This document shows, in pieces, positions 6,101-56,900 of a stretch of DNA of 64,000 nt. The stretch is from the NCBI GenBank assembly GCA_965649765.1, contig OZ287754.1, forward strand, positions 24,986,001 to 25,050,000. The letters run 5' to 3'. Below the pieces are notes generated by a model, which was not told the DNA's origin, made no database searches, and saw only the letters and a list, made by a program, of their open reading frames with translations. Within the stretch, counting starts at the first letter, position 1. Each line of letters begins with the position of its first letter. The DNA comes from Bispira polyomma. Lineage: Eukaryota. The position numbers and the translations under genes were made by a program.

Positions 6101-7599
6101 AACAGTTCCATTTTAAATTAATGTAAAAAAATACAACTGTGCTTAAAAATACATAGGTTTCTTTATTATTACACGATCTATATTATTAAAAAATAAAAAT
6201 AATTAGAAAATACTGGTGGAATACAATAAAATCAAGTGACATATAAAATGTTTATTATGCACATAGTTTAAATATTATATATTCTAAGAGTCCCACACAA
6301 CATAAAGCCAAAGTTATTGCTCCGATAGACCATTTAGCATGTTAGAAATATGAGTTATAATTTATTAAAAAAAATTAGTCTTAATTCATCATGGCAGAGA
6401 TGTTATAGTTAGAACAAAACAAAGGTTTAAGTTTTATGAGGCTCAGCCTAAGCTTAGACTCAATTTCACCATTAATCTAAGGACATTTTGTAAATCCTGC
6501 CTTGACTGTACAATGCAATTTGATATCTTATATCTTAGAGTTAGACTACTATTAATTTTGTTAAATGTTATCTTATAACCTTTTGCGCTATACTGAAGTC
6601 CCTACAAATCATATATCAAATTAAACATCAATCATAGCCTGACATTTCAGTATAAACTACTGTTTTTTAGATATCTTGAAAAAATAAGGAACTAGGTGAT
6701 TTTCTGTTCAATCCAAGATGACCAAGAATTACACAAAAATATTAATAAAAAAGTTTGTTATTATATTATTGATATTAAGTATTGGTATACACTTAACTTG
6801 TATGGTTTAGAAATGCAGTTCTTTTAGTATATTATGAAACAGTTGTTGCATGTAATAACATATATAAATGGAAATTTTCATTATGGCATATACCATAAGA
6901 TTAAAGTGTAATAATCAGTTCTCTTTAAAATCAGGGACCATATTTACAAAACCTTTTGTGAGCCATGGTCTTCAAATGTGAATATATGGGCATAACTAGG
7001 TTAATAAAATACAAATTTCCACTATGTGGTATCAAATGAAAAGGGTCTGTACCTTATTTGCTGACCCATTGTAAAGTTGTAAACCTCTTAAAGTAAGCAA
7101 TCTGATAGCATATAGAAAAATCAATGAATAAGTTATCTGACCAAGTATCCCAAGTCTTACTGGTTATGTAGGCATAAGGTTAATAATTATTCAGGTGCCC
7201 AATGCCCTAGCCCTGAGAACGATACTAATTACCCAAAAGACATTAAAAACACAAATTGGCTACATATATTTATTCTAAAATTTATTCTATTTTTTAACGA
7301 TGTATAACATTGCTCATATCATATTATAATGTAGACATGACTAGAATGGAGCAACAAGTAGTATGATTTTATTAGCATAATGTTTAATTCAGGAAATGAA
7401 TAAAAGATAAATAGTGTTTTTATTACGTGATATTATGAAACTATAAATTTGAGGTCATTAAGCCAACACTGACTATGAACGGTACTTTTCTCATCCCACA
7501 TGTTCACAAACAATTTTTTTCAATAATAACCATAGAATTAGGAAAGCAGAGGGAAATATTACTTTTCATAACCACCCATAAAGTAAGAATTTGAACAAA

Positions 7600-14500: not shown

Positions 14501-14519
14501 ATTTCAGGAGGGGGCAGTG

Positions 14520-21964: not shown

Positions 21965-22056
21965 TTAGTTGTTCATCCACATGGCTGCAATGGTCAGCAT
22001 CATCAGCATAAGGGAAGGTTCCTTTAGTGTGGCACTGCTTTTAACTTCAAAAAGTT
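21965..22056 (-). CDS. last coding exon: GPI-anchor-type C-terminal signal (K)LFEVKSSATLKEPSLMLMMLTIAAMWMNN*
   Basis: Acceptor gtgttttttaag and phase 1 matching the repeat exons. Small-residue triplet SSA, a polar spacer, a 13-residue hydrophobic stretch, then TAA. An alternative in-frame AG lies 12 nt downstream. Confidence 0.8.
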
Positions 22057-23932
22057 CTTAAAAAACACATGAATCACATTAATTATAATATCATTCTCAG
22101 TATCTTGTTGTTTTACTTCCTTGGTGGTTCTTACTTTATACATACCGTCTGTTTACTTCAGTGTTTACTCAGCATGTTTTACAATAGACAATATTGACTT
22201 TTGAGATAGTATTCAAATTTGTTGATAAAGCACAAATAGTTTTGGTAAGAAGTGAATGTGTAATCGGGACTTGGTTCCAGCAGAAGACATTTGAAACACT
22301 TTCTTGTTTAGGACAGAAACTTAAAACCTATTGCTGCAAACTGGACTAGACCCCTTAGTTCCCTCCTAGTGCACCTTACATCCTTCCTTGCGGCCTTGGC
22401 TATGCTTTTGGACTAATTTTTAACATGATTCAACATGTGTATTTTTATGAAATTGTCAAGGCAATGATACTTGTGAGACATGATATGTCTCTAATTTGCA
22501 AAGTGCATTATGACACAAAAGTTTAATTGTGACTTCGACTTTGAGAACACTCTATTATTGTTATAATTTGTTTTAGTTGTACTCACTTTGACAGCCAGAT
22601 TTGTCTGCCTTCAGGACTTTGTCATTAGTACATTTCATGCAATTGTCATGTGAATCACATTCTACACAGTCTGCCATTGCCTCGGAGCAAGCTGAAAAAA
22701 GCAACAACGGTACAAATTTACATTACTACAAGTTATCTCCTGAATAAACATGCACGCAATAATCCTGAAAAAGTAAAGACAAAGTTCTATGCCACCTTAA
22801 CCAAGAGATTTTTTTCATGTGGGGACTACAATTTGGGTCTCCTTCATCTTTTTTGTTGACTTTTGGTGTGAAGAAGTTAATTGACATTTTAGAAATCATT
22901 GAAGTTATGTCCTCTCAAGAATGATTGACTAAAGGACAGTCGCAAAATATAGGACTTTCCGGCTGAATTCACACAATTCCTAGAGACCCTTAGTCTACTT
23001 CCAATGGTAAAACCTCCTGAACGTTTTCGGTTACATTTAGCACATTAAAACAGCTACCCACATCCCCAACCATATTCTAGATCTAGTTATAAGTCAATCT
23101 GAGTCAACTCTGCTAAAAGCCACAGATGTCCCTGATGGTATCTCTGATCATTTCGCCACTTTTGCCACTATTTTGCTACCCAAAGATATCAAGGGTAAAA
23201 CCAAAATCATTAAAATTTAAGGATTAAATAAAATTGACATCAATAATTTCGACATGATATATTGGCCTCCAACCTCATCAAATGCCCATGTAAACAAGCT
23301 AAATTTTAGGCAACCAATACCAAAATACTTGACACACACACCAGTCACCAACAAGCATTTCACCGTCTCCTCCTAATAAATGGTCGACTGCAGCCATCTC
23401 TTAGACCAAACACTGTAAGCAACAGATTGAGAAAGTTTGGCATCAGACAAAATCTGGGTACTACAAACGGCAATACAGAAGGGCCACAAATGATTTTAAT
23501 GCCCATATGTCCAAGGCCTACAAGGACCACGATGAATATATCACCTCTGACAATTTTAACTCCCCTAAAAAGCTATGGAACTCAGTAAACTCCATCCTCC
23601 AGAGAAAATCAGGAAACTCACTACCAGATAGACACTGTACATTTCGTTTCAGAGAGTTTTTTTTATCAAACTTTTAAAATCAGATCTGCCTTTAGGGCTG
23701 CAACTGACAACCTCCCTACGATGTTCTTGGGCTCAATCACTTTCATTCTATGTCTGAGAGTGATGTCTTTAAACTTATTACATCCTCCACTCTCAAATCC
23801 TGTGACTTTGATGCCATTCCAGGTTCTGTTATTTCCAATGTCTTGACATTCTTAATTCACCCATCACTAACATAGTTAACTTATCACTTCTTAAAGGCAG
23901 TTTTCCTGCCTGTTTGACAACTACTTTTTTAC

Positions 23933-23963
<31 letters not shown>

Positions 23964-26900
23964 ACATATACTCAAGAAATCCAACCTTGATAAACACACT
24001 TAAAAATTTTAGGCTTGTGTCTGGCAGCAGGCAGCACGCCTAAATCAGTATGCCTACAGAAAAAATCACTCAGCTGAAAGTGCGTTCTTATATATACTGA
24101 CATCAAACTTGTCTTGACAAAGGTAAAACTACTGCTTTGACACTTGCCAGATGTCTCGACTCCATCCAAGATTGGATCAATTTTTCCAAACTCACACTTA
24201 ATCCTGTCAAAACTAAATTTTATACTAAACAGCACTAAAAAACACAAGGAATAAACTTAAGTCAATGTTTCCTATTAATCTACTCAGCAATGACATACTC
24301 CCAGCGGATAAAGTAAAAAATTTGGGTGTTACTTTTGACTCCCTCTTTTCCTTCGACAATCATATGTCTAATATACGTCGATCTAGTTACATTGATCATG
24401 CATTTGTAAGCAGTCGATCGGACTACTGCAATTTTTGGCTTCTTAGACTAATGAAGTACCAGATGCAAAGGCTACAATCAATGCAGAATCACATGCGCAG
24501 AGGCGTGTGCTGTGTGGGATGATGTGTCAGTATGACTCCTTTTCTCAAAAGGCTACATTGGCTACCTGTACAGTACCGCATCAGTTTCAAGACCAATGTT
24601 ACAACATACAAAGCTGTAAACGTATGTCAGCCCCCATATCTTGCCTTGCCTCCCTCTTACCAAGGGAAAATAATTTCAGTCTCTAATACCAGGACTAGTA
24701 AACGGATTGGATCCTATGCTTTCTCTGTTGCAGCACTTACCCTATGGAATAATTTACCAACCAATATATGATCACAGAAAACCCTCATTGGCTTTAGAAG
24801 TAACCTTAAGACTCATATCTTCACTGTCGCTTACTTTCTATATACATGTCCTCAACGTCTTCCGAATCCTATAGAAGATGCCTGGCATCATTTAGGCGCA
24901 TTAAGAATCTATCATATCATATCATATATTGCGATATTACAGTTGTATTAACTTTTAGATATTGCAATATATTGGGCCATATTCCATTTGCAATATAATT
25001 GTATTGAAAAAATATATTGTGATATATAGAGTTTCCAATGTATTGTTTCACCTAATTGTCTAATCTGAACAGCACCATCAAGGTCCTATTGCAATTGGTC
25101 TTATTGTTGCACCTTAACATATAGTTAAACCCTATTAAGTGTAGTTTTAGATATTTCTGAAATAATTTTCACATACCGTCAATTTACACCAGCAATGTCA
25201 CTGCGGGTACCCGAGGGTATGGGTACCTGTACCTAGTTGCTCGATAATGGTTTCAAACATAGGTTGTCGGTGTTTCTTTGTTACCCACTAGGCCAGAGTG
25301 ACAGATAAAACAAACGATCAAAGAAACTACGACTGATTATGTAAAGCTTATCAAAAACATTAATCTGCTGTCTTGGCTAAAGCATGACTTAACTTAAATT
25401 TATTTTGTGTGTACTCACCTTGACAACCAGTCCTGTCTTTCTTGGGGACTTTGTCATTACTACAAGCCGTACAACTGTCATGTGAGTCACAAACTGCACA
25501 ATCTTCCATTGCATCAGAGCAAGCTGAATATAGTATTATATTTAGAATTTTGTGTTACATAGTACAAATTCGCATTACTACAAGTTATCTCGTTAATAAC
25601 TTAAGCACAAATATGTTGGGTGATAAGTGAATGTGTAATATTGTACTAATTTCCAGAAAATAGGGTTCTGGTGGCTGTAGCATGGTCTGGTATGGGTACC
25701 TATACTTGGTAGATCAAGACTGAATTCAAACCTGGGTGGTCTGTGTTTCTAAGCGAATGTGTTACCCACTAGGCCAGAGTGACAGATAAAACAAAGAAAC
25801 TACGCCTAATTAAGTAAAGCTTATCAAAAACATTAATATGTTGTCTTGGCTACAGCATGACTGAACTTAAATTCGTTTTGTGTGTACTCACCTTGACAAC
25901 CAGTGTTGTCTTCCTTGGGGACCTTTTCATTACTACAAGCCGTACAACTGTCATGTGAGTCACATGCTGCACAATCTTCCATAGTCTCCGAGCAAGCTGA
26001 ATATAGCATAATATTTAGCATTTGGTGTTACATAGTACAAATGTGTATTGTGTGTTATCTCCTTAATAACTTAAGCACAAATAGGTTGGGTGATAAGTGA
26101 ATGTGTAATAGTGTGCTTATTTCCAGAAAAAAGAATTTTTGTACCATAGCATGGGCTGGTATGGGTACCTTTACCTATTAGATCAAGACTGGATTCAAAC
26201 CTGGGTCCAGTGTTCCATAGTGAATGTGGTATCAACTAAGATACAGTGACTGATGAAACAAACAAGAATGCTTTTCAGTATCAAATTTTGTATTCTTATT
26301 GAAAGCTTTTAGCTTTTAGCAATTTGTGTTTAGTATAACATATTTACATTACCACAATTTAGAGTTGATCAACTCTTGAATAAATTTAGCACAAACTGTC
26401 TAGATACTCTAGTGTTACTCAGCATGTTTTTCAATTGACATTATTGTCTACTAATGATTTTTAAAGGAATATTTAAATTTGTTGATGAAACACAAATAGT
26501 TTAGGCAAAAATTAAATGTGTATTTACATTTTCAGAAAATAGGATTAAGGTAGCAGTGTCACGACAGGTATGGGTACCTTACCTAGTTACTCAATACTGA
26601 TTTCAAGCATAGATGTGTTCCTAAGTGCATGTGTTACCCACTAGGCCAGAGTGACAGATAAAACAAATGATAAAGAAACTACGACTAATTATGTAAAGCT
26701 TATCTAAAATATTAATATGTTGTCTTGGTTACAGCATGACTGAACTTAAATTTTATTTTGTGTGTACTAACCTTGACAACCAGTGTTGTCTTCCTTGGGG
26801 ACTTTGTCATTACTACAAGCCGTACAACTGTCAAGTGAGTCACATGCTGCACAATCTTCCATGGTCACTGAGCAAGCTGAATATAGCATAATATTTAGCA

Positions 26901-29900
26901 TTTGGTGTTACATAGTACAGATGTGTATTACTACAAGTTATCGCCTTAATAACTTAAACGCATATAGGTTAGGTGATAATTGAATGTGTAATAGTGTACT
27001 AATTTTCAGAAAATAGGATGTGTGTGGCCGTGGCATGGGCTGGTATGGGTACCATAACCTGGTAGATCAAGACTGGATTCAAACCTAGGCTGTCTGTGTT
27101 CCCAAGCGAGTGTGTTACCCACTCTGCATGAGTGACAGAAAAAACAAACGATCAAAGAAACTATGACTATTTATGTGAAGCTTATCAAAACATTAATCTG
27201 TGGTCTTGGCTACAGCATGACTTACCATAACTTTTATTTTGTGTGTACTAACCTTGACAACCAGTCTTGTCTTCCTTAGGGACTTTGTCATTACTACAAG
27301 CCGTACAACTGTCAAGTGAGTCACATGCTGCACAATCTTCCATGGTCAATGAGCAAGCTAAATATAGCATTTGGTGTTTTATAGTACAAATTTGCATTAC
27401 TACAAGTTATCTCCTTAATATGCTTAGCACAAACAAGTTGGGAGATAAGCGGAGGTGTAATAGGGTAATCTGTTCCAGAAAGTAGGATTCAAGTGGCTGT
27501 GTCATGGGCGAGTACCCAAGGGTATGGGTACCTTTACCGAGTCGAACAAGACTCACTCAAAGATCGGTTGAGCGAATGTGTTACACCGACTAGACCAGAG
27601 TGACAGATAAAACAAACGATCAAAGAAACTATAACTAATTATTTAAAGCTTATCAAAAACAGTAATATGTTGTCTTGGCTACAGCATGACTGAACTTAAA
27701 TTCGTTTTGTGTGTACTCACCTTGACAACCAGTGTTGTCTTCCTTGAGGACTCTGTCATTACTACAAGCCGTACAATTGTCAAATGAGTCACATGCTGCA
27801 CAATCTTCCATTGCCTCAGAGCAAGCTGAATATAGCAATATATTTAGCATTTTGTGTTTAGTAGTACATATTTACATTACTACAAGTTATCTCCTTAATA
27901 GAAGTTCAGTACAAATAATTTTGGTTATAAGTGAAGGTGTAATAGGGTTCTATGTTCCAGAAAATCGGATTCAGGTGGCTGTGTAATGGGCGGGTACCCT
28001 GCGATATGGATACTTTTACCTGGTAAATCAAGCCTGGATTCAAACCTAGGTCCACTGTGTTCATAAACAAATGTGGTATCCACTGGGACACAGAAATGAT
28101 AATGCTTTTCAAGATCAAATTTTGTATTTCTTATTGAAAGCAATCATCAATTGAAAATATGTACTAAAAGTAACACAAAAATTTAAACATATATGTTATT
28201 ACTAAATAAAGATTCATGGAAAGATACACAAAATGTTAAATATATACACTAAATCACTACAAACTTCAAATTCATAGTTATAAAAACACTATTTAAAATT
28301 GCTGAATGGAATGCAAATTTTCTTCCTTTCTTTGAAGTTGTTGGTAAATTATATAAAAGTATTATGTATCTGTAACTAGTGAATACTCAAGACTTAATGT
28401 TATCAGTAAAGTAGAAGATTGAATTTAAATTTTTAAAGTTGATCGACTCTTGAATAAACTTAGCACATACTGTCTAGATACTCCAGTGTTACTCAGCATG
28501 TTTGACAATGGACATTATTGTTTACCAATGATTTTTGAAGGGATATTCAAATTTGTTGACTAAACACAAATAGTTTAGGCAATAAGTGATGCGTGTTCAC
28601 ATATTCAGAAAATAGGATTCGAGTAGCAGTGTCACAACAGGTATAGGTACCTTACCTTGTTGATCGATACTGGTTTCAAACAAAGGTTTTCTGTGTTCCT
28701 AAGCGGATGTGTTACCCACTAGGCCAGAGTAACAGATAAAACAAACGATCAAAAAAACTATAACTAATTATATGAAGCTGATCTGTTGCAGAAAAAAGGA
28801 TTCGGGCAGCTGTGTCCAGGGCTGGTACTCGGAAGTATGGGTATGATTACCTGGTCAATCAAAACTAGATTCAAACCTAGGTTCTTTCTGTTACTAAGTA
28901 AATGTGTTACCCACAAAGCCAAAGTGACAGATAAAGGAAACAATCAAAGAAACTATAACTAATTATGTAAAGCTTATCAAAAACATTAATCTGTTGTCTT
29001 GGTTAAGGCATGACTTAACTTAAATTTATTTTGTGTATACTCACTTTGACAGCCAGTGTTGTCTTGCTTGATGACTTTGTCATTACTACAAGCCGTACAA
29101 CTGTCATGTGAGTCACATGCTGCACAATCTTCCATTGCCTCAGAGCAAGCTGAATATAACATTATATTTAGCATTTTGTGCTTAGTAGTACAGATTTACA
29201 TTAGTGTAAGTTATCTCCTTAATAAGTTTAGAACAAAAATAAATTGTGTGGTAAGTGAGGGTGTAATAGGTACTCAGTTCCAGAAAATATGATTTGGGTG
29301 CCTGTGTCATGGGTGGGTACCAGTAACTACAGGTGCCTTTACCTGGTCTATTGAGACTGGATTCAAACTTAGGTCCACTGTGTTCCCAAACGAATGTGGT
29401 ATACACTGGGACACAGTGGCTGATAAAAAAAACGATAATGCTTGTTAATATGAAGTTTTGTATTCCTTATTGAAAGCTAACATCAATTGAAAATATGTAC
29501 CAAAAGTTACACAAAAAATGAAACATAAATATTATTATTACTAAAAAAGATTCACTGTAAGATACACAAAATGTTAAATATATACACTAAATTACTGCAA
29601 ACTTTAAATTTATAGTTAAAAAAATATTATTTAAAATTCATGAATGTGTAAATGGATTTATTTTACTTTCTTTGAAATTGTTGGTAAATTATATATAAGT
29701 ATCAGTGACTATTAAATACTCAAGATTTGTTTTACTTTCTTTGAAATTGTTGGTAAATTATATATAAGTATCAGTAACTATTAAATACTCAAAAGACCTA
29801 TTGTTATTAGTAATGAAGAAGATTGATTTAAAGTATTTAGAGTTGATCAACTCTTGAATAAATTTAGCACATACTGTCTAGTTACTCTAGTCTTTACTCA

Positions 29901-32900
29901 GCATGTTTTACAATGGACAATATTGTCTACTTATGATTTTTGAAGGAATACTCACTTTGGCAACCAGTGTTGTCTTCCTTGAGGACTTTGTCATTACTAC
30001 AATCCGTACAACTGTCATGTGAGTCACATGCTGCACAATCTTCCATTGCCTCAGAGCAAGCTGAATATAGCATTATATTTAGCATTTTGTGCTTAGTAGT
30101 ACAGATTTACAGTAGTATAAGCTGTCTCCTTATTAAGTTCAGAACAAATAATTGGGGTGGTAAGTGAAAGTGTAGTAGGTACTTCATTCCAGAAAATAGG
30201 ATTTGGGTGCCTTTGTCATGGGTGGGTATCCGGAACTACAGGTGCCTTTACCTGGTCTATTGAGACTAGATTCAAATCTATGTTCTCTCTGTTCCTAAGC
30301 AAAGGTGTTACCCACTAGGCCAAGGTGACAGATAAAACAAACAATCAAAGAAACTATAACTAATTATGTAAAACTTATCAAAAACATAAATTTGTTGTCT
30401 TGGTTACGTCATGAATGGACTTAAATTTATTTTGTGTGTACTCACCTTGACAACCAGTCTTGTCTTCCTTGGGGACTTTGTCGTTACTACAATCAGTACA
30501 ACTGTCATGTGAGTCACATACTGCACAATCTTCCATGGTGTCAGAGCAAGCTGAATATAAAAATGTATTTAGCATATTGTGTTTGGTTGTACAGATTTAC
30601 ATTACTACAATTTATCTCCTTAATATAAGTTCAGCACCAATAATTTCGGTTGTAAGTGAATGTGTAATAGATACTCAGTTTCAGAAAATAAGAATCGAAC
30701 GGCTTTGTTACGGGCGGGTATCCGGAAGTATGAGTACCTTTACCTGGTCGATCAAGACTGGATTCAAACCTAGGTCAGTGTTCCATAGTGAATGTGGTAT
30801 CAACTATGACACAGTGACTGATAAAACAAACGAGGATGCTTTTAAATATCAAATTATGTAGAATTATTGAAAGCTTTTTATTGAAGGCATTTTATGTTTA
30901 GTGGTTCAGATTTACATTACTACAATTTATATCCTCAATAAAAGTTCAGCACAAATAATTCGGGTGGTAAGTGAAGGTGTAATAAGGTAATTTCAAGAAA
31001 ATACAATTCAGGTGGCTGGCATGAGTACCTCTACCTGGTCTATAATGAATGTTTTACCCACTTGGCCTGAGTGACAAATCAAACAAACAACCAAAGAAAC
31101 TCTGGCTACTGCAACCAGTCAACTTATCAAAACATACAGATGTTGTCTTGGGTACAGCATGAATTACTTTAACTCCTATTTTGTGTATCCTCACCTTGGC
31201 AACCAGTGTTGTCTTCCTTGAGGACTTTGTCATTACTACAAGCCGTGCAACTGTCATGTGAGTCACATGCTGCACAATCTTCCATTGTCTCAGAGCAAGC
31301 TGAATATAGCATTATATATATATATATAACTTCAAAACAAAACATTTGGGTAGTAAGTGAAGGTGTAATAAGTACTCAGTTCCTGAAAATAGGATTTGGG
31401 TGCCTGTGTTATGGGTGGGGGCCTGGAACTACAGATGCCTTTACCTGGTAAATTGAAACTGGATTCAAATCTAGGTTTACTGTGTTCCTAAGCGAATGTG
31501 GTATCCACTGGGACACAGTGACCAATAAAAGAAATGATAATGCTTTTCAAGATCAAGTTTTGTATTTCTTATTGAAAGCAATCATCAATTGAAAATATGT
31601 ACTAAAAGTAACACAAAAATTTAAACATATATGTTATTACTAAATAAAGATTCATGGAAAGATACACAAAATGTTAAATATATACACTAAATCACTACAA
31701 ACTTCAAATTCATAGTTATAAAAACACTATTTAAAATTGCTGAATGGAATGCAAATTTTCTTCCTTTCTTTGAAGTTGTTGGTAAATTATATAAAAGTAT
31801 TATGTATCTGTAACTAGTGAATACTCAAGACTTAATGTTATCAGTAATGTAGAAGATTGAATTTAAATTTTTAAAGTTGATCGACTCTTGAATAAACTTA
31901 GCACATACTGTCTAGATACTCCAGTGTTACTCAGCATGTTTGACAATGGACATTATTGTTTACCAATGATTTTTGAAGGGATATTCAAATTTGTTGACTA
32001 AACACAAATAGTTTAGGCAATAAGTGATGCGTGTTCACATATTCAGAAAATAGGATTCGAGTAGCAGTTTCACAACAGGTATAGATACCTTACCTTGTTG
32101 ATCGATACTGGTTTCAAACAAAGGTTTTCTGTGTTCCTAAGCGGATGTGTTACCCACTAGGCCAGAGTAACAGATAAAACAAACGATCAAAAAAACTGTA
32201 ACTAATTATGTAAAACTTATCAAAAACATTAATCTGTTGTCTTGGTTAAGGCATGACTTAACTTAAATTTATTTTGTGTATACTCACTTTGACAGCCAGT
32301 GTTGTCTTGCTTGATGACTTTGTCATTACTACAAGCCGTACAACTGTCATGTGAGTCACATACTGCACAATCTTCCATGGTGTCAGAGCAAGCTGAATAT
32401 AAAAATGTATTTAGCATATTGTGTTTGGTTGTACAGATTTACATTACTACAATTTATCTCCTTAATATAAGTTCAGCACCAATAATTTCGGTTGTAAGTG
32501 AATGTGTAATAGATACTCAGTTTCAGAAAATAAGAATCGAACGGCTTTGTTACGGGCGGGTATCCGGAAGTATGAGTACCTTTACCTGGTCGATCAAGAC
32601 TGGATTCAAACCTAGGTCAGTGTTCCATAGTGAATGTGGTATCAACTATGACACAGTGACTGATAAAACAAACGAGGATGCTTTTAAATATCAAATTATG
32701 TAGAATTATTGAAAGCTTTTTATTGAAGGCATTTTATGTTTAGTGGTTGAGATTTACATTACTACAATTTATATCCTCAATAAAAGTTCAGCACAAATAA
32801 TTCGGGTGGTAAGTGAAGGTGTAATAAGGTAATTTCAAGAAAATACAATTCAGGTGGCTGGCATGAGTACCTCTACCTGGTCTATAATGAATGTTTTACC

Positions 32901-35900
32901 CACTTGGCCTGAGTGACAAATCAAACAAACAACCAAACAAACTCTGGCTACTGCAACCAGTCAACTTATCAAAACATACAGATGTTGTCTTGGGTACAGC
33001 ATGAATTACTTTAACTCCTATTTTGTGTATCCTCACCTTGGCAACCAGTGTTGTCTTCCTTGAGGACTTTGTCATTACTACAAGCCGTGCAACTGTCATG
33101 TGAGTCACATGCTGCACAATCTTCCATTGTCTCAGAGCAAGCTGAATATAGCATTATATATATATATATATAAGTTCAAAACAAAACATTTGGGTAGTAA
33201 GTGAAGGTGTAATAAGTACTCAGTTCCTGAAAATAGGATTTGGGTGCCTGTGTTATGGGTGGGGGCCTGGAACTACAGATGCCTTTACCTGGTAAATTGA
33301 AACTGGATTCAAATCTAGGTTTACTGTGTTCCTAAGCGAATGTGGTATCCACTGGGACACAGTGACCAATAAAAGAAATGATAATGCTTTTCAAGATCAA
33401 GTTTTGTATTTCTTATTGAAAGCAATCATCAATTGAAAATATGTACTAAAAGTAACACAAAAATTTAAACATATATGTTATTACTAAATAAAGATTCATG
33501 GAAAGATACACAAAATGTTAAATATATACACTAAATCACTACAAACTTCAAATTCATAGTTATAAAAACACTATTTAAAATTGCTGAATGGAATGCAAAT
33601 TTTCTTCCTTTCTTTGAAGTTGTTGGTAAATTATATAAAAGTATTATGTATCTGTAACTAGTGAATACTCAAGACTTAATGTTATCAGTAATGTAGAAGA
33701 TTGAATTTAAATTTTTAAAGTTGATCGACTCTTGAATAAACTTAGCACATACTGTCTAGATACTCCAGTGTTACTCAGCATGTTTGACAATGGACATTAT
33801 TGTTTACCAATGATTTTTGAAGGGATATTCAAATTTGTTGACTAAACACAAATAGTTTAGGCAATAAGTGATGCGTGTTCACATATTCAGAAAATAGGAT
33901 TCGAGTAGCAGTTTCACAACAGGTATAGATACCTTACCTTGTTGATCGATACTGGTTTCAAACAAAGGTTTTCTGTGTTCCTAAGCGGATGTGTTACCCA
34001 CTAGGCCAGAGTAACAGATAAAACAAACGATCAAAAAAACTGTAACTAATTATGTAAAACTTATCAAAAACATTAATCTGTTGTCTTGGTTAAGGCATGA
34101 CTTAACTTAAATTTATTTTGTGTATACTCACTTTGACAGCCAGTGTTGTCTTGCTTGATGACTTTGTCATTACTACAAGCCGTACAACTGTCATGTGAGT
34201 CACATACTGCACAATCTTCCATGGTGTCAGAGCAAGCTGAATATAAAAATGTATTTAGCATATTGTGTTTGGTTGTACAGATTTACATTACTACAATTTA
34301 TCTCCTTAATATAAGTTCAGCACCAATAATTTCGGTTGTAAGTGAATGTGTAATAGATACTCAGTTTCAGAAAATAAGAATCGAACGGCTTTGTTACGGG
34401 CGGGTATCCGGAAGTATGAGTACCTTTACCTGGTCGATCAAGACTGGATTCAAACCTAGGTCAGTGTTCCATAGTGAATGTGGTATCAACTATGACACAG
34501 TGACTGATAAAACAAACGAGGATGCTTTTAAATATCAAATTATGTAGAATTATTGAAAGCTTTTTATTGAAGGCATTTTATGTTTAGTGGTTGAGATTTA
34601 CATTACTACAATTTATATCCTCAATAAAAGTTCAGCACAAATAATTCGGGTGGTAAGTGAAGGTGTAATAAGGTAATTTCAAGAAAATACAATTCAGGTG
34701 GCTGGCATGAGTACCTCTACCTGGTCTATAATGAATGTTTTACCCACTTGGCCTGAGTGACAAATCAAACAAACAACCAAAGAAACTCTGGCTACTGCAA
34801 CCAGTCAACTTATCAAAACATACAGATGTTGTCTTGGGTACAGCATGAATTACTTTAACTCCTATTTTGTGTATCCTCACCTTGGCAACCAGTGTTGTCT
34901 TCCTTGAGGACTTTGTCATTACTACAAGCCGTGCAACTGTCATGTGAGTCACATGCTGCACAATCTTCCATTGTCTCAGAGCAAGCTGAATATAGCATTA
35001 TATATATATATATATAAGTTCAAAACAAAACATTTGGGTAGTAAGTGAAGGTGTAATAAGTACTCAGTTCCTGAAAATAGGATTTGGGTGCCTGTGTTAT
35101 GGGTGGGGGCCTGGAACTACAGATGCCTTTACCTGGTAAATTGAAACTGGATTCAAATCTAGGTTTACTGTGTTCCTAAGCGAATGTGGTATCCACTGGG
35201 ACACAGTGACCAATAAAAGAAATGATAATGCTTTTCAAGATCAAGTTTTGTATTTCTTATTGAAAGCAATCATCAATTGAAAATATGTACTAAAAGTAAC
35301 ACAAAAATTTAAACATATATGTTATTACTAAATAAAGATTCATGGAAAGATACACAAAATGTTAAATATATACACTAAATCACTACAAACTTCAAATTCA
35401 TAGTTATAAAAACACTATTTAAAATTGCTGAATGGAATGCAAATTTTCTTCCTTTCTTTGAAGTTGTTGGTAAATTATATAAAAGTATTATGTATCTGTA
35501 ACTAGTGAATACTCAAGACTTAATGTTATCAGTAATGTAGAAGATTGAATTTAAATTTTTAAAGTTGATCGACTCTTGAATAAACTTAGCACATACTGTC
35601 TAGATACTCCAGTGTTACTCAGCATGTTTGACAATGGACATTATTGTTTACCAATGATTTTTGAAGGGATATTCAAATTTGTTGACTAAACACAAATAGT
35701 TTAGGCAATAAGTGATGCGTGTTCACATATTCAGAAAATAGGATTCGAGTAGCAGTTTCACAACAGGTATAGATACCTTACCTTGTTGATCGATACTGGT
35801 TTCAAACAAAGATTTTCTGTGTTCCTAAGCGGATGTGTTACCCACTAGGCCAGAGTAACAGATAAAACAAACGATCAAAAAAACTGTAACTAATTATGTA

Positions 35901-44900: not shown

Positions 44901-47900
44901 AACACAAATAGTTTAGGCAATAAGTGATGCGTGTTCACATATTCAGAAAATAGGATTCGAGTAGCAGTTTCACAACAGGTATAGATACCTTACCTTGTTG
45001 ATCGATACTGGTTTCAAACAAAGGTTTTCTGTGTTCCTAAGCGGATGTGTTACCCACTAGGCCAGAGTAACAGATAAAACAAACGATCAAAAAAACTGTA
45101 ACTAATTATGTAAAACTTATCAAAAACATTAATCTGTTGTCTTGGTTAAGGCATGACTTAACTTAAATTTATTTTGTGTATACTCACTTTGACAGCCAGT
45201 GTTGTCTTGCTTGATGACTTTGTCATTACTACAAGCCGTACAACTGTCATGTGAGTCACATACTGCACAATCTTCCATGGTGTCAGAGCAAGCTGAATAT
45301 AAAAATGTATTTAGCATATTGTGTTTGGTTGTACAGATTTACATTACTACAATTTATCTCCTTAATATAAGTTCAGCACCAATAATTTCGGTTGTAAGTG
45401 AATGTGTAATAGATACTCAGTTTCAGAAAATAAGAATCGAACGGCTTTGTTACGGGCGGGTATCCGGAAGTATGAGTACCTTTACCTGGTCGATCAAGAC
45501 TGGATTCAAACCTAGGTCAGTGTTCCATAGTGAATGTGGTATCAACTATGACACAGTGACTGATAAAACAAACGAGGATGCTTTTAAATATCAAATTATG
45601 TAGAATTATTGAAAGCTTTTTATTGAAGGCATTTTATGTTTAGTGGTTCAGATTTACATTACTACAATTTATATCCTCAATAAAAGTTCAGCACAAATAA
45701 TTCGGGTGGTAAGTGAAGGTGTAATAAGGTAATTTCAAGAAAATACAATTCAGGTGGCTGGCATGAGTACCTCTACCTGGTCTATAATGAATGTTTTACC
45801 CACTTGGCCTGAGTGACAAATCAAACAAACAACCAAACAAACTCTGGCTACTGCAACCAGTCAACTTATCAAAACATACAGATGTTGTCTTGGGTACAGC
45901 ATGAATTACTTTAACTCCTATTTTGTGTATCCTCACCTTGGCAACCAGTGTTGTCTTCCTTGAGGACTTTGTCATTACTACAAGCCGTGCAACTGTCATG
46001 TGAGTCACATGCTGCACAATCTTCCATTGTCTCAGAGCAAGCTGAATATAGCATTATATATATATATATAAGTTCAAAACAAAACATTTGGGTAGTAAGT
46101 GAAGGTGTAATAAGTACTCAGTTCCTGAAAATAGGATTTGGGTGCCTGTGTTATGGGTGGGGGCCTGGAACTACAGATGCCTTTACCTGGTAAATTGAAA
46201 CTGGATTCAAATCTAGGTTTACTGTGTTCCTAAGCGAATGTGGTATCCACTGGGACACAGTGACCAATAAAAGAAATGATAATGCTTTTCAAGATCAAGT
46301 TTTGTATTTCTTATTGAAAGCAATCATCAATTGAAAATATGTACTAAAAGTAACACAAAAATTTAAACATATATGTTATTACTAAATAAAGATTCATGGA
46401 AAGATACACAAAATGTTAAATATATACACTAAATCACTACAAACTTCAAATTCATAGTTATAAAAACACTATTTAAAATTGCTGAATGGAATGCAAATTT
46501 TCTTCCTTTCTTTGAAGTTGTTGGTAAATTATATAAAAGTATTATGTATCTGTAACTAGTGAATACTCAAGACTTAATGTTATCAGTAATGTAGAAGATT
46601 GAATTTAAATTTTTAAAGTTGATCGACTCTTGAATAAACTTAGCACATACTGTCTAGATACTCCAGTGTTACTCAGCATGTTTGACAATGGACATTATTG
46701 TTTACCAATGATTTTTGAAGGGATATTCAAATTTGTTGACTAAACACAAATAGTTTAGGCAATAAGTGATGCGTGTTCACATATTCAGAAAATAGGATTC
46801 GAGTAGCAGTTTCACAACAGGTATAGATACCTTACCTTGTTGATCGATACTGGTTTCAAACAAAGGTTTTCTGTGTTCCTAAGCGGATGTGTTACCCACT
46901 AGGCCAGAGTAACAGATAAAACAAACGATCAAAAAAACTGTAACTAATTATGTAAAACTTATCAAAAACATTAATCTGTTGTCTTGGTTAAGGCATGACT
47001 TAACTTAAATTTATTTTGTGTATACTCACTTTGACAGCCAGTGTTGTCTTGCTTGATGACTTTGTCATTACTACAAGCCGTACAACTGTCATGTGAGTCA
47101 CATACTGCACAATCTTCCATGGTGTCAGAGCAAGCTGAATATAAAAATGTATTTAGCATATTGTGTTTGGTTGTACAGATTTACATTACTACAATTTATC
47201 TCCTTAATATAAGTTCAGCACCAATAATTTCGGTTGTAAGTGAATGTGTAATAGATACTCAGTTTCAGAAAATAAGAATCGAACGGCTTTGTTACGGGCG
47301 GGTATCCGGAAGTATGAGTACCTTTACCTGGTCGATCAAGACTGGATTCAAACCTAGGTCAGTGTTCCATAGTGAATGTGGTATCAACTATGACACAGTG
47401 ACTGATAAAACAAACGAGGATGCTTTTAAATATCAAATTATGTAGAATTATTGAAAGCTTTTTATTGAAGGCATTTTATGTTTAGTGGTTCAGATTTACA
47501 TTACTACAATTTATATCCTCAATAAAAGTTCAGCACAAATAATTCGGGTGGTAAGTGAAGGTGTAATAAGGTAATTTCAAGAAAATACAATTCAGGTGGC
47601 TGGCATGAGTACCTCTACCTGGTCTATAATGAATGTTTTACCCACTTGGCCTGAGTGACAAATCAAACAAACAACCAAAGAAACTCTGGCTACTGCAACC
47701 AGTCAACTTATCAAAACATACAGATGTTGTCTTGGGTACAGCATGAATTACTTTAACTCCTATTTTGTGTATCCTCACCTTGGCAACCAGTGTTGTCTTC
47801 CTTGAGGACTTTGTCATTACTACAAGCCGTGCAACTGTCATGTGAGTCACATGCTGCACAATCTTCCATTGTCTCAGAGCAAGCTGAATATAGCATTATA

Positions 47901-50900
47901 TATATATATATAAGTTCAAAACAAAACATTTGGGTAGTAAGTGAAGGTGTAATAAGTACTCAGTTCCTGAAAATAGGATTTGGGTGCCTGTGTTATGGGT
48001 GGGGGCCTGGAACTACAGATGCCTTTACCTGGTAAATTGAAACTGGATTCAAATCTAGGTTTACTGTGTTCCTAAGCGAATGTGGTATCCACTGGGACAC
48101 AGTGACCAATAAAAGAAATGATAATGCTTTTCAAGATCAAGTTTTGTATTTCTTATTGAAAGCAATCATCAATTGAAAATATGTACTAAAAGTAACACAA
48201 AAATTTAAACATATATGTTATTACTAAATAAAGATTCATGGAAAGATACACAAAATGTTAAATATATACACTAAATCACTACAAACTTCAAATTCATAGT
48301 TATAAAAACACTATTTAAAATTGCTGAATGGAATGCAAATTTTCTTCCTTTCTTTGAAGTTGTTGGTAAATTATATAAAAGTATTATGTATCTGTAACTA
48401 GTGAATACTCAAGACTTAATGTTATCAGTAATGTAGAAGATTGAATTTAAATTTTTAAAGTTGATCGACTCTTGAATAAACTTAGCACATACTGTCTAGA
48501 TACTCCAGTGTTACTCAGCATGTTTGACAATGGACATTATTGTTTACCAATGATTTTTGAAGGGATATTCAAATTTGTTGACTAAACACAAATAGTTTAG
48601 GCAATAAGTGATGCGTGTTCACATATTCAGAAAATAGGATTCGAGTAGCAGTTTCACAACAGGTATAGATACCTTACCTTGTTGATCGATACTGGTTTCA
48701 AACAAAGGTTTTCTGTGTTCCTAAGCGGATGTGTTACCCACTAGGCCAGAGTAACAGATAAAACAAACGATCAAAAAAACTGTAACTAATTATGTAAAAC
48801 TTATCAAAAACATTAATCTGTTGTCTTGGTTAAGGCATGACTTAACTTAAATTTATTTTGTGTATACTCACTTTGACAGCCAGTGTTGTCTTGCTTGATG
48901 ACTTTGTCATTACTACAAGCCGTACAACTGTCATGTGAGTCACATACTGCACAATCTTCCATGGTGTCAGAGCAAGCTGAATATAAAAATGTATTTAGCA
49001 TATTGTGTTTGGTTGTACAGATTTACATTACTACAATTTATCTCCTTAATATAAGTTCAGCACCAATAATTTCGGTTGTAAGTGAATGTGTAATAGATAC
49101 TCAGTTTCAGAAAATAAGAATCGAACGGCTTTGTTACGGGCGGGTATCCGGAAGTATGAGTACCTTTACCTGGTCGATCAAGACTGGATTCAAACCTAGG
49201 TCAGTGTTCCATAGTGAATGTGGTATCAACTATGACACAGTGACTGATAAAACAAACGAGGATGCTTTTAAATATCAAATTATGTAGAATTATTGAAAGC
49301 TTTTTATTGAAGGCATTTTATGTTTAGTGGTTGAGATTTACATTACTACAATTTATATCCTCAATAAAAGTTCAGCACAAATAATTCGGGTGGTAAGTGA
49401 AGGTGTAATAAGGTAATTTCAAGAAAATACAATTCAGGTGGCTGGCATGAGTACCTCTACCTGGTCTATAATGAATGTTTTACCCACTTGGCCTGAGTGA
49501 CAAATCAAACAAACAACCAAAGAAACTCTGGCTACTGCAACCAGTCAACTTATCAAAACATACAGATGTTGTCTTGGGTACAGCATGAATTACTTTAACT
49601 CCTATTTTGTGTATCCTCACCTTGGCAACCAGTGTTGTCTTCCTTGAGGACTTTGTCATTACTACAAGCCGTGCAACTGTCATGTGAGTCACATGCTGCA
49701 CAATCTTCCATTGTCTCAGAGCAAGCTGAATATAGCATTATATATATATATATAAGTTCAAAACAAAACATTTGGGTAGTAAGTGAAGGTGTAATAAGTA
49801 CTCAGTTCCTGAAAATAGGATTTGGGTGCCTGTGTTATGGGTGGGGGCCTGGAACTACAGATGCCTTTACCTGGTAAATTGAAACTGGATTCAAATCTAG
49901 GTTTACTGTGTTCCTAAGCGAATGTGGTATCCACTGGGACACAGTGACCAATAAAAGAAATGATAATGCTTTTCAAGATCAAGTTTTGTATTTCTTATTG
50001 AAAGCAATCATCAATTGAAAATATGTACTAAAAGTAACACAAAAATTTAAACATATATGTTATTACTAAATAAAGATTCATGGAAAGATACACAAAATGT
50101 TAAATATATACACTAAATCACTACAAACTTCAAATTCATAGTTATAAAAACACTATTTAAAATTGCTGAATGGAATGCAAATTTTCTTCCTTTCTTTGAA
50201 GTTGTTGGTAAATTATATAAAAGTATTATGTATCTGTAACTAGTGAATACTCAAGACTTAATGTTATCAGTAATGTAGAAGATTGAATTTAAATTTTTAA
50301 AGTTGATCGACTCTTGAATAAACTTAGCACATACTGTCTAGATACTCCAGTGTTACTCAGCATGTTTGACAATGGACATTATTGTTTACCAATGATTTTT
50401 GAAGGGATATTCAAATTTGTTGACTAAACACAAATAGTTTAGGCAATAAGTGATGCGTGTTCACATATTCAGAAAATAGGATTCGAGTAGCAGTTTCACA
50501 ACAGGTATAGATACCTTACCTTGTTGATCGATACTGGTTTCAAACAAAGGTTTTCTGTGTTCCTAAGCGGATGTGTTACCCACTAGGCCAGAGTAACAGA
50601 TAAAACAAACGATCAAAAAAACTGTAACTAATTATGTAAAACTTATCAAAAACATTAATCTGTTGTCTTGGTTAAGGCATGACTTAACTTAAATTTATTT
50701 TGTGTATACTCACTTTGACAGCCAGTGTTGTCTTGCTTGATGACTTTGTCATTACTACAAGCCGTACAACTGTCATGTGAGTCACATACTGCACAATCTT
50801 CCATGGTGTCAGAGCAAGCTGAATATAAAAATGTATTTAGCATATTGTGTTTGGTTGTACAGATTTACATTACTACAATTTATCTCCTTAATATAAGTTC

Positions 50901-53900
50901 AGCACCAATAATTTCGGTTGTAAGTGAATGTGTAATAGATACTCAGTTTCAGAAAATAAGAATCGAACGGCTTTGTTACGGGCGGGTATCCGGAAGTATG
51001 AGTACCTTTACCTGGTCGATCAAGACTGGATTCAAACCTAGGTCAGTGTTCCATAGTGAATGTGGTATCAACTATGACACAGTGACTGATAAAACAAACG
51101 AGGATGCTTTTAAATATCAAATTATGTAGAATTATTGAAAGCTTTTTATTGAAGGCATTTTATGTTTAGTGGTTCAGATTTACATTACTACAATTTATAT
51201 CCTCAATAAAAGTTCAGCACAAATAATTCGGGTGGTAAGTGAAGGTGTAATAAGGTAATTTCAAGAAAATACAATTCAGGTGGCTGGCATGAGTACCTCT
51301 ACCTGGTCTATAATGAATGTTTTACCCACTTGGCCTGAGTGACAAATCAAACAAACAACCAAAGAAACTCTGGCTACTGCAACCAGTCAACTTATCAAAA
51401 CATACAGATGTTGTCTTGGGTACAGCATGAATTACTTTAACTCCTATTTTGTGTATCCTCACCTTGGCAACCAGTGTTGTCTTCCTTGAGGACTTTGTCA
51501 TTACTACAAGCCGTGCAACTGTCATGTGAGTCACATGCTCAACAATCTTCCATTGTCTCAGAGCAAGCTGAATATAGCATTATATATATATATATAAGTT
51601 CAAAACAAAACATTTGGGTAGTAAGTGAAGGTGTAATAAGTACTCAGTTCCTGAAAATAGGATTTGGGTGCCTGTGTTATGGGTGGGGGCCTGGAACTAC
51701 AGATGCCTTTACCTGGTAAATTGAAACTGGATTCAAATCTAGGTTTACTGTGTTCCTAAGCGAATGTGGTATCCACTGGGACACAGTGACCAATAAAAGA
51801 AATGATAATGCTTTTCAAGATCAAGTTTTGTATTTCTTATTGAAAGCAATCATCAATTGAAAATATGTACTAAAAGTAACACAAAAATTTAAACATATAT
51901 GTTATTACTAAATAAAGATTCATGGAAAGATACACAAAATGTTAAATATATACACTAAATCACTACAAACTTCAAATTCATAGTTATAAAAACACTATTT
52001 AAAATTGCTGAATGGAATGCAAATTTTCTTCCTTTCTTTGAAGTTGTTGGTAAATTATATAAAAGTATTATGTATCTGTAACTAGTGAATACTCAAGACT
52101 TAATGTTATCAGTAATGTAGAAGATTGAATTTAAATTTTTAAAGTTGATCGACTCTTGAATAAACTTAGCACATACTGTCTAGATACTCCAGTGTTACTC
52201 AGCATGTTTGACAATGGACATTATTGTTTACCAATGATTTTTGAAGGGATATTCAAATTTGTTGACTAAACACAAATAGTTTAGGCAATAAGTGATGCGT
52301 GTTCACATATTCAGAAAATAGGATTCGAGTAGCAGTTTCACAACAGGTATAGATACCTTACCTTGTTGATCGATACTGGTTTCAAACAAAGGTTTTCTGT
52401 GTTCCTAAGCGGATGTGTTACCCACTAGGCCAGAGTAACAGATAAAACAAACGATCAAAAAAACTGTAACTAATTATGTAAAACTTATCAAAAACATTAA
52501 TCTGTTGTCTTGGTTAAGGCATGACTTAACTTAAATTTATTTTGTGTATACTCACTTTGACAGCCAGTGTTGTCTTGCTTGATGACTTTGTCATTACTAC
52601 AAGCCGTACAACTGTCATGTGAGTCACATACTGCACAATCTTCCATGGTGTCAGAGCAAGCTGAATATAAAAATGTATTTAGCATATTGTGTTTGGTTGT
52701 ACAGATTTACATTACTACAATTTATCTCCTTAATATAAGTTCAGCACCAATAATTTCGGTTGTAAGTGAATGTGTAATAGACAGTTTCAGAAAATAAGAT
52801 TCGAACGGCTTTGTTACGGGCGGGTATCCGGAAGTATGAGTACCTTTACCTGGTCGATCAAGACTGGATTCAAACCTAGGTCAGTGTTCCATAGTGAATG
52901 TGGTATCATATTACATTACTACAATTTATATCCTCAATAGAAGTTCAGCACAAATAATTCGGGTGGTAAGTGAAGGTGTAATAAGGTAGTAATTTCAAGA
53001 AAATACAATTCAGGTGGCTGGCATGAGTACCTCTACCTGGTCTATAAAGACTGGATTCAAACCTAGGTTCTATGTGTAATCTCCAATGAATGTTTTATCC
53101 ACTAGGCCTGAGTGACAAATCAAACAAACAACCAAAGAAACTCTGGCTACTGCAACCAATCAACTTATCAAAACATACAGATGTTGTCTTGGGTACAGCA
53201 TGAATTACTTTAACTTCTATTTTGTGTATACTCACTTTGGCAACCAGTGTTGTCTTACTTGAGGACTTTGTCATTACTACAAGCCGTACAACTGTCATGT
53301 GAGTCACATGCTGCACAATCTTCCATTGTCTCAGAGCAAGCGAGCATTATATTTAGCATTTTGTGTTATATAGTACAGATTTGTATTACTACAAGTTATC
53401 TCCTTGATAACTTAAGCACAAATAGGTTCTGTGATAAGTGAATGTGTAATAGTGTACTTCCTTACTGTGGGCCACTGGTTTCAGTGCAGAACCTTGACCG
53501 ACTGTATGCAGTGTTCCTCCAGCATTTCCAACTACCCGTCCCAATATAACCTACTAAAAGGTACTAGAGTGGATGTTAAATATCCAAATTCAAAGTAATA
53601 GTGTACTAATTTCCAGAAAATAGAATTTGGGTGGCTGTGGCATTGGCTGGTATGAGTACCTTTACCTGGTCGATCAAGACTGGATTCAAACTTAAGTTGA
53701 CCGTATTTCTAAGCAAATGTGTTACCCACTAGGTAAGAGTGACAGATAAAACAAATGGTCAAAGAAACTATAATTAATTATGTAAAGCTTATCAAAATAT
53801 TAATCTCTTATCTTGCCTACCGCGTGACTTACCTTAACTATTATTTTGTGTGTACTCACCTTGACAACCAGTCTTGTCTTCTTTAGGAGCTTTGTCATTA

Positions 53901-56900
53901 CTACAAGCCGTACAACTGTTGTGTGAGTCACATGCTGCACAATCTTCCATTGCCTCCGAGCAAGCTGAAATGACAATATATTTAGCATTTTGTGTACTAT
54001 AGTACAGATTTACATTAGTACAGGTTATCTCCTTAAATTTAGGTTCAGCGCAAATAATTTGGGTAGTAAGTGAATGAGTAATAGGGTTCTCTGTCCAGAA
54101 AATAGGATTTAAGTGGCTGTGTCATAGGCGGGTACTAGGGAATAATCTAAACTAATCTAGTTGTACTTTTATACCGCTTAATCTTTGTACAACAAATTAT
54201 AAGGTGCAACAAACCCGAAACATTAATCAAAAATTAAAAAGTAGTGGGCGGATGGAAGTCGTAACCAGGAAGACTACCGGAATGGTTGCCACGGCTAAGG
54301 TGGAAAAGCCTGTTCAAAAAGGTAGGCCTTCAGAGGATAAAGTTTGAGTCAGGTAAGCCAGGCGAACAGGATCAGGTAGGCTGTTCCAAATGAGGGGGCC
54401 ATCATGAGCTGGGCAGGGATTGAACTGAACTTTGGATTTGTGGATGTGAGGGTCAAAAGTGGGAATGTTAAGGTATAATTTATCAGGGTTACTGCGCCTT
54501 GTCCTTACTGAGCATGTATATTTGGATAGATGGTGGCTGAAATAAGTGGGTAATCCAGAATTTAGAAATTTATGTATAATTGTTTCTGTTTTGAAAGCAA
54601 CACGATATTTTATTGGGAGCCAGTGCATTGACTTGAGTACAGGAGTAATGTGGAAAAATTTGGAAGTTTTGGTCACAATACGTGCCAGTGAGTGTTGAAT
54701 GTTCTGAAGGCGTTTTTCAGATTTCAGATCAATACGAAAAAAGGAACGAAACAGAGAGTTGCAGTAATCAAGCCTACTGCTGACCAAAGCATTGGCAATG
54801 GTAATTGCAGTGGATTTGGAAAGATAGTGTCGAATCTGCCTGAAATCACGAACACTAACAAAACATAATCTCAACACCGATGCAACATGGTTAGAGAAGG
54901 AGAATTCAGAGTCGAACAACACACCCAGGTTGTGTACTTTGTCACCTGAAAAAAACCTGCTGCCAAGAATATCAAGTGGAAAACAGCCGGACAGGGAATA
55001 TGAATACCTTTGCATGGTCGATCAAGCCTGAATTCAAACCTAGGTCCACTGTGTTCCTAAACGAATGTGGTATCCACTAGGACACAGTGATCGATAAAAC
55101 AAACGAGAATGATTTTTAGAGTCAAATTTTATATCTCTTATTGAAAGCTATCATGAGTTCAAAATATGTACTAAAAGTTACACAGAAAATTAAACATATA
55201 TATTATTACTAAAAAGATTTCCTGAAAGATACACAAAATGTTAAATATATACACTAAACCACTGCAAGCTTCAAATTAATAGTTACAAAAACATTATTCA
55301 AAATTGATGAATGCGTTAATGGAAATTATCTTCCTTTCTTTGAAATTGTTGGTAAATTATATAAAAGTATTATGTATCCGTAACTAGTGAATACTCAAAA
55401 GACTTAATGTTATTAGTAGTAAAGAAGATTGAGTTAAATTATTTAGAGTTGATCAACTCCTAAATAAATTTAGCACATACTGTCTAGATATTCTAGTCTT
55501 TACTCAGTATGTTTTAAAATGGACATTATTGTCTACTAATGATTTTTTAAGGAATATTTAAATTTGTTAATGAAAGACAAATAATTTAGGCAATATGTGA
55601 ATGTGTGTTCAGATATTCAGAAAATAGGATTCGGGTCGCAGTGTTACGATTGGTATGAGTACCTTACCTAGTTGCTCAATACTGGTTCAAACATATGTTG
55701 TCTGTGTTCCTAAGCAAATGTGTTACCCACTAGGCCAGTGTTTTAGATAAAACAAACGATCAAAGAAACTACGACTGATTATGTAAAGCTTATCAAAAAC
55801 ATTAACCTGCTGTCTTGCTTACAACATGACTAAACTTAAATTCATTTTGTGTGTACTCTCTTTGACAGCCAGTGTTGTCTTCCTTGAGGACTTTGTCATT
55901 ACTACAAGCCGTACAACTGTCATACGAGTCACATGTTGCACAATCTTCCATTGCCTCAGAGCAAGCTGAATATAGCATTATATTTAGCATTTTTTGTTAT
56001 ATAGTACAGATTTACATTACTACAAGTTATTCCCTGAATGAATATGCTAGAAGTCATTTCAGTACTTTGGTTATTTCTATTATTTTATGGCTACATTATT
56101 TTTGGGGGCTGTTCATTATTAAAGCATTCTGAAACATCAACAAAGTTTCAGTGAGGATTTTTCACTAGTTTATGTGTGTTTATTTTCATAAATAAGGCCA
56201 TTTGAATGAATAATATATATTTACACATATACATACATATACATAGTGTACATTGATAACGTGCTGTAACCACATCTTTGTATCATTTTTATTTCAAGGT
56301 TTTGTTATTACGAAAGTTGCACTTATGATTTCCCAACAATAGCTATTTGTTGGAGCCATGCAAATCACTGGCCAACAAATATAAATGTTCTATGCTGCTT
56401 TTAGAATAGCAGTGAATTTTATGTATGTGTAGTGGAAAATGCTGACTCCTCCATTAAGAGTCAAGGTGTACAAAGGCAATTGAATGTTTAAAAAGTTTTG
56501 CAGCCATGTCTTCTCCTGATTAATTCAGATTAATTCGGACTCAGATTTTTATTTTGTGGCCATTTAATCACGAAATAGAAAAAGGCACAAGTATCACCTC
56601 CAAAAATGCTAGGATGCATAAAAAGGCGAGGACTCATGTCTAGTGAATGGACCAGAGGAATGTGAGATTAATAAAGACATGACTGCTGATCAAAAGAAGA
56701 AGTTAAATTATTGTCCCAAATATAAGGCGAACAAGAATTAAATGCCTTCTCAAAATCTACAAGCATCAATAATCCGGTAATTTTTCCTGTTTAGTAAAAT
56801 GCATTAGAGAGGTAATAAAATAGTGTTGTGCACTCACCTATGTATCTGCCACAGAGAAAATCAGATTGATTTGTTGAAATTATCAAGTTTATTACCCTTT

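Follow-up and report, generated by a model that had tools for sequence, protein, structure and literature searches.

Tandem phase 1-1 exons of Bispira polyomma as the likely repeat stalk of a predicted glycosylphosphatidylinositol-anchored protein

In a 64,000-nt window of the Bispira polyomma genome (G000:C7:24986001-25050000), a search with one module identified a 105-nt exon in 36 copies, all of them on the minus strand between 55965 and 22587 and in the same phase 1-1 register. We read these in-frame exons as the repeat stalk of a predicted glycosylphosphatidylinositol (GPI)-anchored surface protein with a fast-changing head. In this reading, to which we give a probability of about 0.58, stalk length varies at the DNA level, likely by unequal crossing-over, and the exons are likely joined serially rather than combinatorially. 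The locus deserves attention because its predicted GPI proteins carry an unclassified, apparently fast-evolving head and because the stalks of related gene copies span an about ten-fold range of lengths.

Results

An array of 105-nt exons between a head exon and a tail exon

AG acceptor, GT donor and open frame are all present in 33 of the 36 module copies. These intact modules comprise 13 distinct DNA and 12 distinct protein sequences with 59-94% identity, and the copy-weighted identity is 88%. Just two peptides, in 12 and 11 copies, account for 23 of the 33, both derived from a 1842-bp unit present 12 times. The units are 99.7% identical, with 0-3 substitutions per unit, two lengths (1842-1844 bp) and recurrent variant sites in common. 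The original prediction of about a dozen distinct intact modules is right as a count of sequences, with most copies belonging to a single tandem expansion. The window gene spans 58 kb and contains every predicted exon from ATG to tail, the first three lying upstream beyond the window:

ATG at C7:25066219, minus strand: first coding exon, conserved, with a hydrophobic end and a phase-0 donor
C7:25054107-25054074, minus strand: 34-nt phase 0-1 exon
G000:C7:25052219-25051947, minus strand: 273-nt phase 1-1 head exon, encoding a 90-residue head
62558..62680, minus strand: 123-nt phase 1-1 exon, the first six-cysteine repeat and a longer variant of the module
53860..53964, minus strand: first intact 105-nt module
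30551..52660, minus strand: 12 tandem units of 1842-1844 bp with two modules each (24 modules, 23 intact)
22587..30550, minus strand: nine older, more distinct modules (starts 30550, 30060, 29149, 27825, 27357, 26876, 25996, 25523 and 22691)
21965..22056, minus strand: terminal phase-1 exon with small residues, short spacer, hydrophobic tail and stop; predicted GPI signal

The exon arithmetic predicted earlier was confirmed: every module exon is phase 1-1 and a multiple of 3, any subset would splice in frame to the predicted GPI exon, and the 123-nt exon (1-1) and the phase-1 tail agree. The terminal exon has a second in-frame AAG acceptor at 22044. Module introns are at least 363 nt long and all GT-AG, and the donors of all 146 splice-competent modules in the 12 clustered genes described below are consensus-strong (GTGAGT, GTGAGG, GTAAGT, GTTAGT or GTGAGC). 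An alternative ATG at L011:7650 was dropped, as it is ATA in related copies.

Each module follows the pattern C-x6-CxxC-x5-CxxC-x12-C, with six cysteines invariant in 18 of 18 aligned rows; six conserved cysteines with two CxxC pairs are the family pattern of the furin-like (FU) repeat. The module profile matches the R-spondin-1 furin-like repeat (E=0.005). For the module model, which has a predicted local distance difference test score (pLDDT) of 86, R-spondin Fu repeats were the top match in both fold searches, with low scores (root-mean-square deviation [rmsd] 1.3 Å over 30 residues, E=0.4; Z 2.6, rmsd 1.8, 30 aligned). No Pfam family reached its cut-off for the module, none of 175 longer-protein candidates aligned to it at E<=0.001, and the leads from a feature search, Furin-like_2 and VSP clusters, stayed under 0.9.

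In the tail, small residues are followed by a short spacer and then by a hydrophobic end (13-residue hydropathy 2.11), with no cytoplasmic part. GPI signals are recognised by C-terminal small residues, a spacer and a hydrophobic tail with no cytoplasmic part, and the protein is thus predicted to be GPI-anchored at the cell surface. Three other tail candidates from the first scan, at 19661, 14387 and 13361, were dropped because they lie in stretches that look transposon-like by eye; the exon at 22056 recurs in 13 paralogs.

The 90-residue head matched no Pfam family, gave no usable Atlas match, and had no match in two longer-protein searches or, below E 0.95, among PDB sequences. Against 1.84 billion representatives, a single 23-residue match was obtained and is ascribed to chance. 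Its structure model is poor (pLDDT 40), and a beta-trefoil or Ig-like look was set aside as an unsupported impression. Across the 14 paralogs described below, the N-terminal half of the head is variable, and its C-terminal two-cysteine motif is conserved. A literature search, weak because it used generic terms, found no description of this gene family.

Stalk length differs between neighbouring gene copies

We examined 1.0 Mb of genome sequence and searched the whole genome with two exons, the one for the head and the 123-nt one. There are 14 genomic copies of either, of which 12 form a tandem series at C7:24.29-25.05 Mb; the other two lie at C7:26.10 and at C11:31.02. Three further rows of the head search, at E about 0.5, were left out of the 14. 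The cluster is made of segmental duplications that are 98-99.9% identical, and a homologue of the terminal exon is found in 13 of the 14 paralogs. Four of the 12 clustered genes are long, with 34, 27, 18 and 36 splice-competent modules, and eight are short, with 3-4 each. The arrays have grown by different units (1842 bp in the window gene; 6422-6424, 3139 and 1174 bp in sister arrays), and the last modules stand in identical order in all four long paralogs. Different repeat units over shared last modules are the expected trace of independent unequal crossovers.

The near-identity of the paralogs extends to both ends of the stalk: 4 of the 12 clustered paralogs share one DNA sequence for the 123-nt exon, and 6 have tails 0-1 base apart. 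Reverse-transcription PCR between these two exons would therefore co-amplify paralogs and give bands from different genes. PCR over near-identical repeats can also generate false ladders.

Several paralogs depart from the plan of the window gene. A shared deletion of ~290 bp removes the first coding exon of five short paralogs of the B type (window 1191/1192, in the case of the next gene, and C7:24.446, 24.594, 24.726 and 24.849 Mb). The lost exon is still present in the paralogs at C7:24314471 and on C11, and the head, stalk and tail frames remain open in the five genes, which are probably young pseudogenes. A site at C7:24976438 was not accepted as a first exon of the short genes, since it resembles repeats elsewhere in the region. 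In three long sisters (C7:24876286, 24622628 and 24474930) the tail stop codon is changed to Tyr, adding nine residues that place charged ones after the hydrophobic stretch; this extension may impair GPI addition or leave a short membrane anchor. Sister arrays at C7:24.48-24.50, 24.63 and 24.885-24.895 Mb contain half-modules with an intact acceptor 193 nt upstream of a full module, the use of which would shift the frame. An inverted paralog at C7:26.076-26.110 Mb has the first exon, the head and five modules, of which two lack an acceptor and one of those two is truncated; no tail exon was found for it within the 90 kb examined.

The stalk is conserved and the head appears to change faster

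Among the 13 distinct modules of the window, the ratio of nonsynonymous to synonymous differences per site (pN/pS) is 0.38-0.55, and the stalk modules are under purifying selection. Corresponding substitution rates (dN and dS) were compared in 15 pairs from 6 of the 14 paralogs, chosen to represent types. The 123-nt exon has dN<dS in 13 of these pairs, and the head exon dN>dS in 11. B-type and C-type heads are separated by 11 replacement and 0 silent changes. In four of five pairs, head pN (0.23-0.24) exceeds flanking-intron divergence (0.11-0.12; p<=3e-5), and a codon model on six head sequences gave omega 1.8 (p=0.04). These comparisons are suggestive, not firm, that the head is changing faster, at about twice the intron rate. 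They do locate the diversity of sequence in the single head exon and not in the array, where module choice would alter length and hardly sequence, given the copy-weighted identity.

Damaged copies and exon symmetry

Damaged module copies upstream were originally taken to force skipping if the tail was to be reached. Three copies bear on this claim:

55861..55965, minus strand: module copy without donor (GA instead of GT), a pseudoexon
53236..53340, minus strand: module copy without acceptor and with TAA, a pseudoexon
51463..51567, minus strand: module that keeps both splice sites but contains an in-frame TGA, the sole copy that needs skipping to reach the tail

The copies at 55965 and 53340 do not require skipping, because each has lost a splice site and is intron sequence. 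The donor of the 55965-type copy is also missing in three long and two short sister genes; five cryptic donors lie behind it, of which one is in frame (63 nt) and weak. The lesion of 53340 recurs in six further copies in sister genes. The claim holds for 51567 only, which has both splice sites and a TGA produced by two adjacent substitutions (51540-51541) confined to that unit. This is the single stop among the 146 splice-competent modules, so that the need for skipping applies to the window copy alone; the three long sisters need no such skip. Unless 51567 is skipped, the product would stop after about 240 codons and be secreted, or the message would be decayed, as messages with such a premature stop usually are. 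Coding damage affects 1 of 35 distinct splice-competent sequences and 7 of 10 splice-dead ones (Fisher p=2e-5, a value that is overstated because the sequences are related and not independent).

The symmetry of the modules is one single fact and not surprising, because all copies derive from one exon. Tandem duplication of an asymmetric exon would break the frame. A study of human genes reports a common symmetric phase for 108 of 118 highly similar neighbouring exons (PMC3632108). In sponge Aggregation Factor genes, 154 of 155 introns are phase 1, which the authors read as a signature of shuffling, alternative splicing being merely suggested (PMC5400394). The in-frame exons here are likely a by-product of DNA duplication and not a splicing-based diversity machine, because stalk length already differs (3-36 repeats) in the DNA of neighbouring gene copies. 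The symmetric-exon observation is by itself an ordinary footprint of tandem exon duplication.

Other features of the region

A 175-nt non-coding block with a TATA-like motif in predicted intron 1 (L011:5010-4837; C7:24.96 and 26.096 Mb) is 87-89% conserved between paralogs, above its surroundings, and might act as an internal promoter or enhancer. Outside the window, a TATA-like segment with a GTGAGG donor behind it is found several times upstream of the long genes (C7:25057600-25080450), and the first coding exon has a second copy, truncated, at C7:25080033. The sole assembly gap in the 864-kb region, 200 N at C7:24565412-24565611, falls inside one short paralog. Degenerate stretches that by eye resemble Harbinger-type and LINE-type transposon remnants occupy window 12900-15900, 19700-20800, 23000-24900, 54300-54950 and 56700-57400. 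By depth, high-copy sequence fills 53.3-55.4 kb and 60.8-61.9 kb of the window.

Discussion

The protein plan that best accommodates these observations would comprise a signal peptide, an orphan recognition head, a furin-like repeat rod and a GPI tail. Phase 1-1 symmetry would have let duplications survive, and module copies that lost a splice site would have fallen into intron and then decayed. Unequal crossing-over would alter stalk length while the head diverges, within a birth-and-death cluster of receptors, and the stalk would serve as a spacer fixing the distance of the recognition head from the membrane. The window copy, with its recent stop in one module, would yield a decayed message or a secreted product of ~240 residues unless 51567 is skipped. 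The pattern is that of invertebrate self/non-self, gamete-recognition or immune receptors, and the locus is well suited to testing cleanly whether such repeat-exon stalks are tuned at the level of DNA, RNA or both.

Several points weigh against this reading. Anchoring and a recognition role are both predictions, the former made through a general rule for GPI signals. The fold matches of the module score poorly in both E-value (best 0.4) and Z (2.6), since it is only 34 residues long. Head divergence compared with synonymous sites alone is significant in none of five pairs, local alignment may understate the intron divergence of 0.11-0.12, and omega for the head falls to 1.2 (p=0.36) once the C11 copy is included. 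Purifying selection on the modules fits cassette use equally well. The pyrimidine share of module acceptors is 0.60, against 0.67-0.73 in four fixed exons. Of 38 Botryllus fester family (FF) genes, 26 splice out 1-3 stalk exons, combinatorially (PMC12582321), and exons duplicated in tandem frequently come to be alternatively spliced (PMC6071210).

These last points bear on the idea of combinatorial isoforms advanced in the original prediction. Combinatorial or stochastic skipping of stalk exons would add to the DNA-level variation a per-gene ladder in 35-residue steps, and skipping 51567 would rescue the window copy. Every module subset is in frame, the window copy still carries its one stop exon with both splice sites intact, and module acceptors are slightly weaker than those of the fixed exons. 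Precedents exist in Botryllus FF7, with 7/8 stalk-exon combinations (PMC12582321), and in oyster bindin, where splicing determines how many repeats, 1-5, are present (PMC5712786). Yet donors are strong, a stop occurs in just one of 146 splice-competent modules, the three long sisters reach the tail with no skip, skipping would change length and scarcely sequence, and the paralogs already provide lengths of 3 to 36. The frame arithmetic and the Botryllus precedent thus stand, but nothing in the sequence indicates designed combinatorial splicing, the donors being strong and the modules near-identical; such splicing appears permitted rather than indicated, and we consider the ladder an unlikely, though the most credible, alternative. 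A Dscam-type choice of one module per transcript, which had also been proposed, is very improbable. The array here does consist of tandem homologous exons of like length and phase. Tandem homologous exons of the same length are the usual origin of such clusters, and competing docking/selector pairing is their main mechanism (PMC6071210). Here, the frame could not enforce exclusivity, 23 of the 33 choices would give two peptides, and the introns are at least 363 nt long and all GT-AG. In perfect-helix tests on 12-13 modules with 300-nt flanks, no spot in either flanking intron paired with more modules than in shuffles in any of four tests. Duplex tests on 7 modules gave best energies of -17.5 and -18.0, against -15.2 to -19.4 for shuffles; a third gave -21.6 against just two shuffles (-20.8 and -21.1), and a fourth was run without a control. 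No pairing thus clearly stood out from shuffles, although these tests leave room for very short or distant imperfect pairings. The 58-kb gene has a single inverted repeat, which is far from the array, on the upstream side of the head exon.

It is also conceivable, if distinctly less probable than the ladder, that the window gene or much of the cluster consists of decaying recent duplicates that make no protein of consequence. The stop in 51567, the loss of the first coding exon from five short genes by one shared deletion, a stop in the head of one short gene and the lost tail stop codon of three long sisters would all fit, and segments that are 98-99.9% identical have had little time for decay. 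Against this, reading frames and splice sites agree among paralogs whose introns differ by ~11-12%, and also with the more remote C11 copy, module pN/pS is below 1 with six invariant cysteines, and the window gene has all predicted exons from ATG to tail. An error of assembly, either in the 12-unit array or at the 51567 stop, might be suspected from the 99.7% identity of the units and from a stop that rests on two adjacent changes in one unit, as read in the assembly only. We think this highly improbable, since recurrent variant sites and two unit lengths are what recombination would give. In addition, a piece of the unit has ~3-4 times the depth of flank contigs in three DNA runs of one study, near the 11-12 versus 3-4 assembled copies, an agreement that is weak because the depth of a contig does not measure copy number and the assembly may have been built from these runs. 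Among the 40 of 122 variant rows listed, none lies at the 51567 stop site; 35 of them were tested, five in repeats or of mixed depth being left out, and 35 of 35 match the three sisters. A bolder and rather improbable scheme, somewhat less so than misassembly, would make the whole cluster one splice-combinatorial receptor locus. A long-gene transcript that skips its tail would splice into the next paralog, giving two-headed or head-swapped GPI proteins, and module skipping would tune head reach over 1-36 steps. There would be room for such splicing because head, first repeat and modules are all phase 1-1 and because the five short genes are open without a first coding exon of their own; if real, cross-paralog splicing would give receptors a new way to diversify.

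The serial, DNA-tuned stalk that we favour can be set beside several known systems. Botryllus FF receptors resemble the present proteins as clustered, copy-variable and fast-evolving invertebrate surface proteins with mostly N-terminal variation and small exons between head and membrane (PMC12582321). In contrast, FF proteins are Ig and Sushi transmembrane proteins in which skipping of 1-3 exons is shown in RNA (PMC12582321), whereas the present genes would encode an orphan head, 3-36 furin-like repeats and a GPI-like tail, with no Sushi exon seen; the likeness is one of analogy only. Sponge Aggregation Factor genes share the gene cluster, the near-uniform phase 1 of introns and internal repeats that include introns, but their Calx-beta, VWA and Wreath domains were not seen here (PMC5400394).

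The comparison with oyster bindin made in the original prediction survives as an analogy only. Both have tandem repeats variable in number, and bindin shows positive selection within the gene (PMC5712786); a recognition role is presumed for the present family. Bindin repeats are F-lectin binding units under positive selection, their number being set by splicing of single-copy genes (PMC5712786), whereas the repeats here are conserved (pN/pS 0.38-0.55), their number differs between genomic paralogs, and it is the single head exon that appears to change fast. No F-lectin match to the module, a 34-residue six-cysteine unit, was found in family and profile searches. The exon clusters of Dscam1 are likewise built of tandem homologous exons of the same length (PMC6071210), but the copies here are near-identical and not diversified, and docking/selector pairing was not found. 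At the level of the module, the closest likeness is to the FU repeats of R-spondins and to Giardia VSP-like repeat proteins, through the six-cysteine CxxC-CxxC arrangement and a fold that resembles, at low scores, the Fu fold of R-spondin; here, no thrombospondin or protease exon was seen, and each repeat occupies one exon, in up to 36 copies.

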